Assembly (NCBI RefSeq): GCF_000940845.1
Contig: NZ_CP010341.1
Coordinates: 1,980,001-2,012,000, forward strand
DNA: 32,000 nucleotides
Reading direction: 5' to 3'
Origin: Propionibacterium freudenreichii subsp. freudenreichii
GTDB taxonomy: Bacteria > Actinomycetota > Actinomycetes > Propionibacteriales > Propionibacteriaceae
How positions within the stretch are numbered: the first letter of the stretch is position 1; every line of letters begins with the position of its first letter. Below the pieces are notes generated by a model. That model was not told the DNA's origin. It ran no database searches and worked only from the letters and a program-made list of their open reading frames with translations. The translations under genes and the position numbers were made by a program. This document shows positions 27,606-31,678 of this stretch, piece after piece.

Positions 27606-28091
27606 TCAGGAAGCGAGCACCTCGTCGAGCATGACCTCGGCGCGCTCTTCCTCGACCTTCTCAGCAAGCGCGAGCTCACTGACCAGGATCTGACGGGCCT
27701 TGGCCAGCATGCGCTTCTCGCCGGCCGACAGGCCCCGCTCCTTCTCGCGGCGCCACAGGTCGCGGACGACCTCGGAGACCTTCATGACATCACCGGAGTG
27801 AAGCTTCTCAAGATTGGCCTTGTAGCGACGCGACCAGTTCGTCGGCTCTTCCGTATGGGGCGCACGCAGCACGCTGAAGACCTTCTCGAGGCCCTCCTCG
27901 TCGACCACGTCACGCACACCGACCAGGTCGAGGTTGCATGCAGGCACCCTCACCACCAGGTCAGTCTGACCGAGGATTCTCAGCACAAGGTAAAGCGTGT
28001 CCTCACCCTTGATCTTGCGGGTCTCGGTGTCCTCGATGACGGCCGCGCCATGGTTGGGGTAGACGACGGTCTCGCCGACAGTGAAAGTCAT
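27606..28091 (-). CDS. carD: RNA polymerase-binding transcription factor CarD
   Basis: ATG 28091 is preceded by [49 protein letters not shown]... matches the CarD N-terminal RID plus the C-terminal helical domain. Confidence 0.95.
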
Positions 28092-28113
28092 ATATGCACC
28101 TCTCCTCCTTCTT

Positions 28114-28119
28114 ATTCTA
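28114..28119 (-). promoter_or_regulatory. Candidate extended -10 element of carD (TGG-TAGAAT)
   Basis: The minus strand reads gtggTAGAATaagaaggaggagaggtgcatatATG, in a locally AT-rich stretch. No convincing -35 is present. Confidence 0.35.
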
Positions 28120-28214
28120 CCACAGGCATTGCAAGGAAAGGCCATTGCCCCGGGATTTCGCCCGTCGCGAATCATCCGAAAGGCGTCGGACAATTCATGT
28201 TGTCATTTCAGAAA

Positions 28215-28232
28215 ACTGAAGGGGAGTTCAGT
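28215..28232 (-). terminator. Native regX3 terminator, now separated from the gene body by the IS
   Basis: Minus strand ACTGAA-ctcccc-TTCAGT followed by TTTCT. It starts at the TAA of the orphaned regX3 3' remnant. Confidence 0.5.
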
Positions 28233-28276
28233 TAGCCCATGAATTTGTAACCGAGTCCGCGCACCGTCACCAATGC
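28232..28276 (-). pseudogene. regX3: Orphaned 3' end of regX3 (last 14 codons plus stop)
   Basis: Minus-strand translation: gca ttg gtg acg gtg cgc gga ctc ggt tac aaa ttc atg ggc taa = ALVTVRGLGYKFMG*. This is the canonical OmpR/PhoB-family wing; M. tuberculosis RegX3 ends ...LVTVRGLGYKLEG. Confidence 0.85.
28269..28276. repeat. Target-site duplication, left copy (ACCAATGC)
   Basis: It is identical to 29716-29723. A ninth shared base (c at 28268 and 29715) makes the exact boundary ambiguous by 1 nt. Confidence 0.85.
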
Positions 28277-28301
28277 GGCTCATCCCAATCGGGGGTGTAG
28301 G
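28277..28301. repeat. IS terminal inverted repeat (transposase-distal end, overlaps the tnp stop)
   Basis: See the mobile_element entry. The transposase TGA is at 28280-28282, inside this IR. Confidence 0.75.
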
Positions 28302-29605
28302 AGTTGGGGTCTGAAGCCGCCGGTCTCGAGCAGGCTTCGGGCGATGTAGTTGGTCAGGTTGCGGAACCCGAGTGCGGAGCCGCGCAGGTGTTCGAGCCGT
28401 CCGTTGAGCGCCTCGGTCGGCCCGTTGCTGGTGCCGGGTCGTTCGAAGTAGGCGAGCACGTCAGCGGCTCGCTTCTTCAGGGTCCGGCCCAGGGTGGTGA
28501 GCTCGGTGAGCACCTTGGGGACGCCGGCGCTGAGGTCGGTGATCAGCTTCTCCATGAGCTCGCGGCCACGTTGCCGGTCCTCGTGGCGATAGGCGGCGAT
28601 CATGCGCTGGTAGACACCCCAGGTCGCCTCGACCTCGACGTGAGCGTCATCAACGAACAGCGCGCGTAGCCTGTCGCTCTGCTTGTCGGTGAGCAGGTCC
28701 GCGCCGGTGTGCAGCGTGCGCCGCGACTTGTAGAGCGGGTCGTCCCTGAACCCACGGTGCCCGTGGATCGCGAGTTGGACCCGGCGCCGGCACCTGTCGA
28801 GGGCGTCACCGGCCAGGCGCACGACGTGGAAGGGATCCATCACCGTGACCGCGTCCGGGATCTCCTCTGCAGCGGCGGTCTTGAACCCGGTGAAGCCGTC
28901 CATCGCGACCACCTCGACCGCGTCACGGAAGGCGTCGTCGCGGTCGGCGAGCCAGGTCTTGAACGCCGCCTTCGACCGGCCCTCGACCATGTCCAGCAGC
29001 CTTGCTGGGCCGGCGCCATCGCGGACCGGGGTGAGGTCGATGATCACGGTGACGTACTTGTCGCCACGCCTGGTGTGGCGCCAGACGTGCTCATCGACGC
29101 CAATGACCTTCACGCCCTCAAACCGCGTGGGGTCGTTGATCAGCAGCCGCTTGCCTTCAGCCAGGACCGCGTTGTTGGCGGTGTCCCACGCGACCCCGAG
29201 TCCCTCGGCGACACGGGCGACGGTGAGGTGTGCGACCACGATCCCTTCCAGCGCCCACCGCAGCCCGGTGCGCGAGAGCTTCGCGCGTGGCTCCGCCGCG
29301 GCGCTGGTGTCTTGGCGCCACACGTGTCCGCAGTCGGCACAGCGGTAGCGGCGCACTACAACTTCCAGCACGGTCGGTCGCCAGCCCAGCGGCTCGTGGG
29401 CCAACCGCCGGATCACGGTGTCACGAGCAGCGCCTTCGCTGCCGCACCGTCGGCACCACTGATCTGGTTCCACCACGCGGCACGCGAGGACCGCACGATC
29501 CGGTTCAAGTCGTTGTCCGGTCACGCTCAGACCGAGGCCGTCGAGTCGAGCGAAGGCGGTCAGGTCAGGGCGGCCGAAGCCGGCCGGCGGGGTAGCGTCG
29601 GACAC
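28280..29605 (-). CDS. ISL3-family transposase, 441 aa
   Basis: It has an N-terminal zinc-finger-like region, CRRCG...RYRCADCGHVW. The DDE region includes VIGVDEHVW, VVAMDGFTGF and NGPTEALNGRLEHLRG. The start is GTG 29605. Confidence 0.95.
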   Translation of the reverse strand: MSDATPPAGFGRPDLTAFARLDGLGLSVTGQRLEPDRAVLACRVVEPDQWCRRCGSEGAARDTVIRRLAHEPLGWRPTVLEVVVRRYRCADCGHVWRQDTSAAAEPRAKLSRTGLRWALEGIVVAHLTVARVAEGLGVAWDTANNAVLAEGKRLLINDPTRFEGVKVIGVDEHVWRHTRRGDKYVTVIIDLTPVRDGAGPARLLDMVEGRSKAAFKTWLADRDDAFRDAVEVVAMDGFTGFKTAAAEEIPDAVTVMDPFHVVRLAGDALDRCRRRVQLAIHGHRGFRDDPLYKSRRTLHTGADLLTDKQSDRLRALFVDDAHVEVEATWGVYQRMIAAYRHEDRQRGRELMEKLITDLSAGVPKVLTELTTLGRTLKKRAADVLAYFERPGTSNGPTEALNGRLEHLRGSALGFRNLTNYIARSLLETGGFRPQLLHPRLG

Positions 29606-29690
29606 GTCGAGGTCTTTCGGATGGATGGCGTAGGAACCTCCATCGTCGGGAGACCTCGACGTCTATCTGCGGACCGACGCGCCCGGCCGA

Positions 29691-29715
29691 CCTACACCCT
29701 CATCTGAGAAGACCC
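29691..29715. repeat. IS terminal inverted repeat (transposase-proximal end)
   Basis: The plus strand reads cctacaccctcatctgagaagaccc. It supplies the new GLLR* end of the truncated regX3. Confidence 0.75.
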
Positions 29716-30356
29716 ACCAATGCCGTCGGATGTGACGGATCGAGCTCGATCTTGGCGCGCAGGCGCTTGACGTGCACATCAAGGGTCTTCGTATCCCCCA
29801 CGTAATCAGATCCCCAGACCCGATCAATCAGTTGCTCCCGCGACATGACACGGCCGGAATTGCGCAACAGCAGCTCGAGCAGCTCGAATTCCTTCAGGGC
29901 CAGGCGCACCGGCTCGTCACGCACGGCCACCTCGTGGCGCTCCACGTCCATGCGCACATCGCCACTCTCGAGCACATCGGGCACCAGTTCCTCGGCACGC
30001 CCGCGGCGCAGCACGGCGCGGATGCGGGCCACCAGCTCACGCTGGCTGAACGGCTTGGTCACATAGTCGTCGGCGCCCAGCTCGAGGCCCACCACCTTGT
30101 CAACCTCGGAATCGCGGGCGGTCACCATGATCACCGGCACATCGCTGCGCTGCCGCAGCGCCTTGCACACCTCAATACCGGGTAACCCCGGCATCATGAG
30201 GTCAAGAAGCACCAGGTCGGCCCCATTGCGATCGAATTCGGCCAGGCCCTGCTCGCCGTCCGGCGCCGCCGCGACGGCGAACCCCTCCCGGTCAAGCATG
30301 AACGACATGGCGTCCCGATAGGACTCCTCGTCCTCAATGATCAGAATGCGACTCAC
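29700..30356 (-). CDS. regX3: OmpR/PhoB-family response regulator RegX3 (PhoP-like), C-terminally truncated by the IS
   Basis: GTG 30356 with GAGGAG upstream, 5 nt after the senX3 stop. VSRILIIEDEESYRDAMSFML...DLVLLDLMMPG...VPVIMVTARDSEVDKVVGLELGADDYVTKPF...GDTKTLDVHVKRLRAKIELDPSHPTALV is near-collinear with M. tuberculosis RegX3. The sequence then reads GLLR* from IS sequence instead of TVRGLGYKFMG*. Confidence 0.88.
   Translation of the reverse strand: MSRILIIEDEESYRDAMSFMLDREGFAVAAAPDGEQGLAEFDRNGADLVLLDLMMPGLPGIEVCKALRQRSDVPVIMVTARDSEVDKVVGLELGADDYVTKPFSQRELVARIRAVLRRGRAEELVPDVLESGDVRMDVERHEVAVRDEPVRLALKEFELLELLLRNSGRVMSREQLIDRVWGSDYVGDTKTLDVHVKRLRAKIELDPSHPTALVGLLR
29716..29723. repeat. 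Target-site duplication, right copy (ACCAATGC)
   Basis: Identical to 28269-28276. Confidence 0.85.
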
Positions 30357-30361
30357 AGTGC

Positions 30362-31549
30362 CTATTCTCCTCGCTCGCGACCGGCGGCGGATTGATCCTG
30401 GGGAACCGGGTCCGCCACCGGCCCGAGGTCCTCGGGCAGGCGGACGGTGAAAGTGGATCCCTGGCCCGGACGGCTCCACAGGCTGATCGAGCCACCATGG
30501 GCCGCCACGACGTGCTTCACAATCGACAGCCCCAGCCCGGTGCCACCATCGGCCCGGCTGCGCGCATAATCCACCCGATAGAAGCGCTCAAAGATCCGCT
30601 CCTGTTCCTCGGGGGCAATTCCGATTCCATTGTCGGTGACGGCGATCTCAACCCAGTGGTCGTCGGCCTGGGCGACGCGCCGCACCGTCACCGCGACGCG
30701 CGCACCACGATCGGAATAGGAGATCGCATTCGCCACCAGATTGGTGATGGCATTGGTCAGCTGGTCGAGGTCGCCGATCACCGTGAGCCCCTTGTCCCCG
30801 GTGACCGAGAACGAGACCTCATGGCCCACCAGCGCATCGTGGGTGCGGGAGGCCGCCTGGGCGACCACCTCATCCACCGACACCACATGGGCGCCCAGCA
30901 GCGGATCATCGGACTGCAGGCGCGACAGCTCGATGATCTGGCCCACCAGTTCGCCCAGACGCTTGCTCTCCACGCCCATCCGCCCCGCAAAGTGGCGCAC
31001 CGCCTCGGGATCGTCGGCGGCCGCCTGCAGGGTCTCGGCCAGCACCTGCATCGCACCCACCGGCGTCTTGAGCTCGTGGCTCACATTGGCCACCAGGTCA
31101 CGCTTGGATTCATCGGCGCGAAGCACGGCACTGTGGTCCTCGACGATCGCCAGCACGGCGTCGCGTTCCATGGGATGCACCCGGGCGGTGAGGATGCGTG
31201 CCGGACCGGCCAGGTCGGAGCCCAGTCGCACGTCATGCACCGACGCCTTGCCGCTCTCACGGGCCCGACGCACCTGGTCGAGCACCTGGTGGATGCCGAT
31301 GCGCCCCCCACGCACCAGGCCGAGGGTGCGGGCCGGCTCGTTGGCACAGACCACCTCGTCATGGGGCCCCACCACCACCGCGGGGGGACGCAGGGCGTCA
31401 ACGACGACGGCCACCTCGGGATCGACCACCGGCGGGCGTTCATGCATGCGCCGGCGCGCATTGAGGCCCCAGCTGATGACCGCGGCGAGGCCGGCACCGA
31501 GGAGTGCACCCAGCACAAGGCTGAGCAACACGGCGGGGACAAGGCTCAC
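30362..31549 (-). CDS. senX3: Sensor histidine kinase SenX3 (PhoR-like)
   Basis: ORF 30362..31651. It has an N-terminal TM segment, a PAS-like region, the H-box DLVANVSHELKTPVGAM, an N box (ITNLVANAISYS) and G boxes (DNGIGI, GGTGLGLSIV). I prefer GTG 31549 (VSLVPAVLLSL...). That start matches the M. tuberculosis SenX3 N-terminus, which begins at the TM segment, and avoids overlap with the PHO-box-like repeats. Alternatives are GTG 31651 and ATG 31642. Confidence 0.85.
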   Translation of the reverse strand: MSLVPAVLLSLVLGALLGAGLAAVISWGLNARRRMHERPPVVDPEVAVVVDALRPPAVVVGPHDEVVCANEPARTLGLVRGGRIGIHQVLDQVRRARESGKASVHDVRLGSDLAGPARILTARVHPMERDAVLAIVEDHSAVLRADESKRDLVANVSHELKTPVGAMQVLAETLQAAADDPEAVRHFAGRMGVESKRLGELVGQIIELSRLQSDDPLLGAHVVSVDEVVAQAASRTHDALVGHEVSFSVTGDKGLTVIGDLDQLTNAITNLVANAISYSDRGARVAVTVRRVAQADDHWVEIAVTDNGIGIAPEEQERIFERFYRVDYARSRADGGTGLGLSIVKHVVAAHGGSISLWSRPGQGSTFTVRLPEDLGPVADPVPQDQSAAGRERGE

Positions 31550-31556
31550 GGGGCCG

Positions 31557-31562
31557 ATTGTA
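31557..31562 (-). promoter_or_regulatory. Candidate -10 (TACAAT), 7 nt upstream of GTG 31549 (possible leaderless senX3 mRNA)
   Basis: The minus strand reads ccccTACAATcggccccGTG, and there is no SD sequence between the hexamer and the start codon. Confidence 0.35.
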
Positions 31563-31645
31563 GGGGAGCTGCCGGCCGTCGCCGACCGCCCACGGGGTCG
31601 GTGCCGCACCGCCGCGCCTGCGCCGGGCGGCGGGGGCCCCATGTC

Positions 31646-31678
31646 GTTCACCAGTTGTTCACATGGGCGTCACGCATC
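31646..31678. promoter_or_regulatory. PHO-box-like array: three 11-bp direct repeat units
   Basis: GTTCACcagtt / GTTCACatggg / cGTCACgcatc, starting at 31646, 31657 and 31668 (exact 11-bp phasing). A TANNNT hexamer (TAGCAT, 31706-31711) lies 27 nt downstream toward phoU. Confidence 0.55.

Follow-up and report, generated by a model that had tools for sequence, protein, structure and literature searches.

ISPfr2 insertion at the 3' end of regX3 in Propionibacterium freudenreichii truncates the response regulator and probably impairs its DNA binding

The senX3-regX3 locus of Propionibacterium freudenreichii lies in a 32-kb stretch of DNA that we analyzed (the window; coordinates without an accession are positions in it). 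Its genes, together with an inserted transposase gene and carD, are all read from the minus strand. A senX3-type histidine kinase gene (30362–31642, minus strand) stands upstream of regX3, and regX3 is interrupted by a 1439-bp insertion sequence (IS) of the ISL3 family, ISPfr2 (28277–29715, minus strand). The element separates a truncated regX3 open reading frame (ORF) of 218 aa (29700–30356, minus strand) from an orphaned 3' remnant of the same gene (28232–28276, minus strand), and the next gene downstream is carD (27606–28091, minus strand). We describe here the insertion, the strains that carry it, and what it is likely to have done to the regulator.

The boundaries of ISPfr2 are set by its terminal inverted repeats (IRs) and by a target-site duplication (TSD). 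The repeat on the transposase-start side, IRL, occupies 29691–29715 and reads GGGTCTTCTCAGATGAGGGTGTAGG in the regX3 orientation, and the opposite repeat, IRR, occupies 28277–28301 (GGCTCATCCCAATCGGGGGTGTAGG). Both 25-nt arms begin with GG, and they are 72% complementary, IRR matching IRL at 18 of 25 positions. Directly outside the element, the octamer ACCAATGC is present on the carD side (28269–28276) and again on the regX3 side (29716–29723). This direct repeat matches over exactly 8 bp with no extension beyond, and the octamer occurs just two further times in the 32 kb. The transposase gene (28280–29605, minus strand) encodes 441 aa from a GTG start, is uninterrupted, and has its stop codon 3 nt short of the IS end. 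Its product matches DDE_Tnp_ISL3 (PF01610, 4e-56) and transpos_ISL3 (NF033550, 364 bits against a cut-off of 180), and there is a weak Zn_ribbon_ISL3 match. Elements of the ISL3 family are about 1.4 kb long and have one DDE_Tnp_ISL3 ORF, imperfect IRs that start with GG, and 8-bp duplications.

The effect on the coding sequence can be read directly across both ends of the element. Residues 1–214 of the 218-aa protein are native (29716–30356), the following GLLR and stop codon are read from the IS end (29700–29715), and the translation thus finishes ...KRLRAKIELDPSHPTALVGLLR before the stop. On the far side, the 45-nt remnant holds the duplicated ALV codons, the codons for TVRGLGYKFMG and the native stop, and translates in frame to ALVTVRGLGYKFMG and that stop. 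When the element and one octamer were removed in silico, the result was a 225-aa protein that is 100% identical to the commonest P. freudenreichii regX3 allele (P0001, 153 contigs). An earlier, sequence-only reading of this DNA had proposed a 1439-bp ISL3 element with an intact transposase ORF, imperfect 25-nt IRs and a perfect 8-bp duplication. It also had regX3 ending in GLLR at 218 aa, an in-frame remnant on the far side, and 225 aa restored by removal of the IS and one octamer. We reproduced all of these features, coordinates included.

The same reading called for a comparison with sister strains, and this revealed the empty site in other P. freudenreichii genomes. Among complete genomes, the gene is uninterrupted, 140 nt upstream of carD, in CIRM-BIA1 (FN806773), JS (LN997841), LT576034, LT618785 and CP018002. 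When the flanks from the window were aligned at the DNA level with three intact-gene genomes, a single GCATTGGT stood at the join and both flanks were identical.

The occupied site is not confined to one assembly. An index of the assembly collection has the exact 218-aa protein (AJQ91490.1 / WP_044636328.1, 53 contigs) in 60 blocks. We read 23 contigs and inspected the junction in seven, which come from NCBI, ENA and Logan assemblies. Every one of the seven runs from regX3 into the IS and breaks 30–141 bp inside it, with zero mismatch to the window, as is to be expected of short-read assemblers at a multi-copy repeat. Upstream of the junction, the seven match the window at 100% identity over 2285 bp, whereas strains with the intact allele differ from it by at least nine substitutions and one indel. 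This identity indicates one clonal lineage, in which the insertion arose once. The lineage almost certainly includes the type strain DSM 20271T, and the accessions of the truncated regX3 product (AJQ91490.1) and of its kinase neighbour (AJQ91491.1) adjoin.

The interrupted gene is supported, by sequence comparison, as a RegX3 orthologue of the OmpR/PhoB family. The best solved-structure match of the repaired protein is M. tuberculosis RegX3 (2OQR, 4e-98, full length), well ahead of MtrA (4e-59) and PhoP (5e-46). The kinase, with HisKA and HATPase_c domains, ends 5 nt upstream of regX3 and is named SenX3 by several sources. It appears intact, with an uncertain start for which annotators' calls run from 361 to 426 aa. 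Beyond senX3 lies a divergent phoU; downstream the order is carD, ispD, ispF, and the order regX3-carD-ispD-ispF is identical in all strains compared. The structural match, the SenX3-type kinase immediately upstream and the divergent phoU agree with the name that the regulator had been given from its sequence. As the protein passes no RegX3-specific NCBIfam model, orthology rests on the PDB match and on synteny. The receiver domain is complete (PF00072, 5e-32, residues 4–113), and its phospho-acceptor, D52, is invariant in 25 orthologues.

The part of the protein that is missing is the end of the effector domain. In the 218-aa protein, Trans_reg_C is matched over profile positions 2–65 of 77; a complete winged helix is thus absent from the window allele and present in the repaired ancestral gene. 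In an AlphaFold2 model of the intact protein (25-sequence alignment; mean pLDDT 81.6, and 84–92 in the four final blocks of 10 residues), the recognition helix spans residues 190–203 and the C-terminal hairpin has its strands at 213–216 and 220–223. Set against this model, the window allele is without half of strand beta6, the hairpin turn and the entire strand beta7, and it gains GLLR. The lost native segment comprises 11 residues, 215–225. Among 25 Propionibacteriaceae orthologues (78–93% identity to the P. freudenreichii protein), T215, V216, R217, G218, L219, G220, Y221 and K222 are invariant. The listed orthologues are all 225 aa long, save for a few shorter metagenome fragments. Related regulators might have ended naturally in ALVGLLR, a possibility raised beforehand; those that we aligned end ...LVTVRGLGYKF.G.

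In winged-helix proteins of the OmpR/PhoB family, the terminal hairpin is the 'wing', which packs on the recognition helix and contacts DNA. Because the lost hairpin corresponds to this DNA-contacting wing, loss or strong reduction of DNA binding by the 218-aa protein is, by analogy with the family, the most likely consequence.

The inserted element is already known. At NCBI, the identical 441-aa transposase carries the name 'ISL3-like element ISPfr2 family transposase' and is marked MULTISPECIES across Actinomycetes; our use of the name ISPfr2 rests on this label and on the CIRM-BIA1 genome paper, in which ISPfr2 is listed. The element was first catalogued in that strain (Falentin et al. 2010, PMC2909200), whose genome holds 22 IS types from four families that make up 3.5% of its sequence (PMC2909200). 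In the collection, the exact transposase protein is found in 467 blocks, with several copies per genome. We compared copies from CP120880.1, LT576034.1, LT576032.1, CP191348.1 and LT618777.1. Ten further copies from four other P. freudenreichii genomes, as well as the one in strain JS7, are 100% identical to the window copy over 1439 bp, as expected if the insertion is recent, which the sequence-only reading had suggested. Eleven identical copies occupy differing sites in six genomes, a feature of mobility, and some of the sites lie inside genes: an SSF transporter that is split in CP191348.1, for instance, is whole in CP120880.1. Duplications of 8 bp flank five other copies besides that in the window, and an A/T-rich centre is common to the duplicated octamers (GCATTGGT, TGATTACG, GGTTTGGT, CGTTTGCA, GGTAATCG and CTGAAAGA). 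Movement of 100%-identical ISL3-family transposase genes by copy-and-paste has been reported within single cultures (Deptula et al., PMC5644110). Given the identical copies at strain-specific sites and this reported movement, ISPfr2 is an active, recently expanded element.

Some copies elsewhere have a different context. A scan of GTDB representative genomes with a 30-nt IS end gave seven matches, all in other actinomycete genera, and matched no P. freudenreichii record. Copies at 98.7–99.7% identity occur in Kineosporia, Serinicoccus, Brevibacterium senegalense, B. aurantiacum (a cheese bacterium), Phycicoccus and CP189837.1. In these distant genera, the flank on the transposase-start side is conserved for ~130 to 2400 bp and the 8-bp duplication is missing, which suggests that the IS may travel there inside a larger mobile unit. 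Within P. freudenreichii, four copies (in CP120880.1, LT576034.1 and CP191348.1) share an identical left flank of 1.4–2.9 kb, have differing right flanks and lack a target duplication. The shared left flank consists of another ISL3 transposase remnant and a 190-aa ORF. Such an arrangement could stem from IS-mediated rearrangements or from a composite element, and it agrees with published transposase-bounded inversions.

The window allele is not the only altered form of regX3 in the species. A 202-aa variant (SCQ45428.1, SCQ49727.1) falls in the same 90% cluster and ends ...RVWGSDYGVFSDEGVGRPGASVRR before its stop, which is the IS end read in another frame. It derives from LT618777.1, one of two chromosome forms of strain JS7, where an identical 1439-bp ISPfr2 in the same orientation occupies 4557–5995, after regX3 nt 556, with the TSD TGATTACG (regX3 orientation). 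The insertion in the window follows regX3 nt 641, so that the JS7 insertion lies 85 bp upstream of it; the corresponding position in the window, 29801–29808, is uninterrupted. As the JS7 flanks belong to the common haplotype and not to that of the window, and as site and duplication differ as well, the two insertions are independent. The JS7 product has neither the recognition helix nor the wing. A third allele, of 222 aa (P0124, 9 contigs, from other strains), has ELL deleted from KEFELLELLLRN, within helix alpha1 of the effector domain. This deletion presumably arose by replication slippage at a 9-bp tandem repeat at 29871–29888 (CAGCTCGAG CAGCTCGAA on the plus strand), which encodes ELLELL.

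With the N-terminal 157 aa as query, no truncated regX3 forms were found beyond those of 218, 202 and 222 aa, and no truncated senX3 alleles were found in the species, where the variants reflect start-codon calling alone. In a look-up by CarD, the 24 longest contigs all had the intact-regX3 neighbourhood; similar places are collapsed in this look-up, and the count is no allele frequency.

The insertion may also bear on transcription toward carD. A hairpin of 7 bp, A/U-rich and followed by UUUUCUG, spans the native regX3 stop (28214–28233, minus strand) and is identical in strains with the intact gene; the surrounding 56 nt fold at -11.8 kcal/mol (z = -2.2). The earlier description of an orphaned native terminator at 28215–28232 stands as far as the hairpin and the U-run are concerned, but the site did not pass a simple terminator scan, which returned 0 sites over 27900–30500. 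We therefore regard the hairpin as a possible, weak terminator. A scan of the same interval for sigma-70-like promoter consensus sequences found none, leaving an outward IS promoter unsupported. As the transposase stop codon is 3 nt from the IS end, the transposase transcript must exit toward carD. The transposase is co-oriented with the operon and no terminator lies inside the IS, and for this reason transcription that originates in senX3-regX3 or in the IS probably continues through the 45-nt remnant toward carD. The gene itself encodes CarD_C and CarD_TRCF_RID domains, and its 140-bp upstream region is unchanged.

At the other end of the operon, three 11-nt direct repeats (GTGACgcccat GTGAACaactg GTGAACgacat; 31641–31673, minus strand) lie just upstream of the senX3 start or overlap it. 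We take this arrangement to resemble actinobacterial PHO boxes, which have a GTTCAC core on the other strand, and the repeats are a candidate autoregulatory RegX3 site. The same region varies among strains. Compared with five other strains, the window differs by nine substitutions and one inserted base (G at 31640) within ~150 bp at the senX3 5' end (31496–31644), and shows almost no lineage-specific change in the remaining 1.8 kb. The change at 31644 falls inside the third repeat unit, and the insertion at 31640 probably explains why SenX3 is called at 426 aa instead of 415 aa. Since 426-aa calls are also found in other strains with intact regX3, the senX3 5' variation looks like a recombined haplotype with no link to the IS. 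Elsewhere in the window, an msiK RNA cis-regulatory motif (RF01747; 6331–6386, plus strand; 48.4 bits against a gathering score of 33) is the sole Rfam match.

These comparisons show that ISPfr2 transposed once, in the ancestor of this lineage, into codons 212–214 of regX3 and generated the 8-bp duplication. The regX3 frame now reads 16 nt into the IS end and stops, yielding a 218-aa protein with its receiver intact and most of its winged helix. Binding of this protein to its target boxes would most likely be abolished or much reduced. The receiver domain could still be phosphorylated by SenX3 but would no longer activate transcription, and the lineage would be naturally mutant in the phosphate-starvation circuit of SenX3-RegX3. 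For the core of this model, an ISPfr2 insertion that truncates RegX3 with likely loss of DNA binding, we estimate a probability of about 0.85.

Several observations weigh against it. The 218-aa protein keeps the recognition helix (190–203), so that residual or altered binding is possible. The lineage is present in many metagenome assemblies, which shows that the allele is compatible with persistence. The phosphate role of the Propionibacterium RegX3 is extrapolated by analogy from mycobacteria. A lesser point is that, for the truncated protein, the gene-position index has nothing on contigs longer than 200 kb, whereas the cluster table has a contig of 2.65 Mb.

The insertion might instead be an assembly artefact, with an IS copy misplaced through repeat collapse, and multi-copy, 100% identical ISPfr2 is the type of sequence that is prone to misassembly. 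The sequence-only reading had allowed for this. Yet all seven independent assemblies that we inspected have the identical regX3-IS junction, and the perfect 8-bp duplication is present as a single copy at the empty site. Moreover, the DSM 20271T genome (CP010341) was, according to its genome paper, assembled into one contig from PacBio reads (10-kb library, 198x), and such reads should span a 1.4-kb IS. We thus rejected repeat collapse, which we consider extremely improbable. A real insertion may still be close to neutral, either because the 218-aa RegX3 binds well enough or because dairy and laboratory media are rich in phosphate and the regulator is not needed there, the allele hitch-hiking in a species with very active IS elements. 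The intact recognition helix and receiver domain are compatible with this, as are the persistence of the lineage across many samples and the presence of ISPfr2 at many strain-specific sites, other genes (the SSF transporter) included. Most IS insertions in the species are, in addition, without obvious impact (PMC2909200). However, the invariance of T215 to K222 in 25 orthologues points to strong constraint on exactly the segment that is lost. The JS7 insertion, which also removes the recognition helix, is hard to square with retained function, though it fits dispensability. On balance, near-neutrality seems to us unlikely.

The JS7 and ELL-deletion alleles raise the further question of whether some P. 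freudenreichii lineages have been under selection to lose RegX3 function, in which case both ISPfr2 insertions and the ELL deletion would be convergent inactivating or modifying lesions. Three independent lesions of the effector domain in one species would be in keeping with selection (the IS after nt 641, the IS after nt 556 in JS7, and the 9-bp deletion in 9 contigs), and the differing JS7 flanking haplotype confirms that the insertions were separate events. As a loose parallel, a regX3 SNP is among the regulator-gene mutations fixed in experimentally evolved M. tuberculosis (PMC9213004). But only two of the events are IS insertions, and the second may have struck regX3 by chance: with 100–300 assumed ISPfr2 sites and a uniform model, we estimate a second insertion in a given 678-bp gene at ~3–8%. 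Furthermore, senX3 has no truncations, and no more truncated regX3 forms appear as separate clusters. We accordingly find selection doubtful. Only tentatively would we entertain the related idea that regX3 is a recurrent target of inactivation, whether because dairy or laboratory niches rich in phosphate favour loss of the phosphate-starvation response or because the IS alters expression of carD downstream. Recurrence could instead reflect target preference, if the 3' part of regX3 were a local hotspot for ISPfr2. Both insertions have the same orientation, with 85 bp between them, and their duplicated octamers share the A/T-rich centre of the other duplicated sites. In addition, a native regX3 sequence that stands between the two sites, GGGTCTTC (29783–29790), equals the outermost 8 nt of the IS; its distance is 11 bp to the JS7 site and 60 bp to the window site. 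At four other duplicated sites, however, no IR-like sequence lies within 150 bp, and GGGTCTTC may be a coincidence; the A/T-centre preference is so loose that thousands of genomic positions would satisfy it. We know of no description of targeting to IR-like sequences for ISL3 elements, and we did not adopt it as a general ISPfr2 mechanism, the match being found at regX3 alone. A hotspot is therefore improbable in our view.

The truncation of RegX3 with likely loss of DNA binding would, if true, make the type strain DSM 20271T a natural Pho-circuit mutant. DSM 20271T is a common laboratory reference, for transcriptomics as well as for work on vitamin B12 and microcompartments, and recent transcriptome and metabolism papers have used it. 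Should its RegX3 be non-functional, findings made with it on stress survival, on starvation and on phosphate and polyphosphate metabolism may not represent the species. Users are not warned of the truncation, as the NCBI label of the 218-aa product is 'response regulator transcription factor' and the name does not flag it. DSM 20271 and JS7, set against CIRM-BIA1 or JS, offer a ready-made natural allelic series for the role of SenX3-RegX3 in propionibacteria.

As an event, the insertion in regX3 is a new instance of an ordinary and known kind, IS-driven gene disruption. In P. freudenreichii, IS-caused variation is already documented for the capsule (an IS upstream of gtf), for lactose use (genes flanked by IS) and for restriction-modification (genes inactivated by transposons) (PMC2909200; PMC5644110). 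These cases resemble ours in species, in the class of mobile element and in that IS movement produces strain differences; they differ in that no two-component regulator is involved. Insertions in regX3 are not mentioned in the P. freudenreichii genome papers, the DSM 20271 paper or the literature that we searched, and no match came from searches that paired P. freudenreichii with RegX3 or SenX3. New here are the independent ISPfr2 insertion in regX3 of JS7 and the ELL-deletion allele. The element itself has, by NCBI label, the same 441-aa transposase as ISPfr2 of CIRM-BIA1, and what distinguishes this lineage is only where the element has inserted.

The regulatory system can be compared with SenX3-RegX3 of M. 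tuberculosis, to which it is alike in several respects. The proteins align over their full length and share the C-terminal LVTVRGLGYK motif, the kinase gene lies directly upstream, and a phosphoglycerate-mutase-family gene and phoU are nearby. The 11-nt direct repeats with a GTGAAC core upstream of senX3 are a further likeness. What sets the window protein apart from its mycobacterial counterpart is the absence of the last 11 residues.

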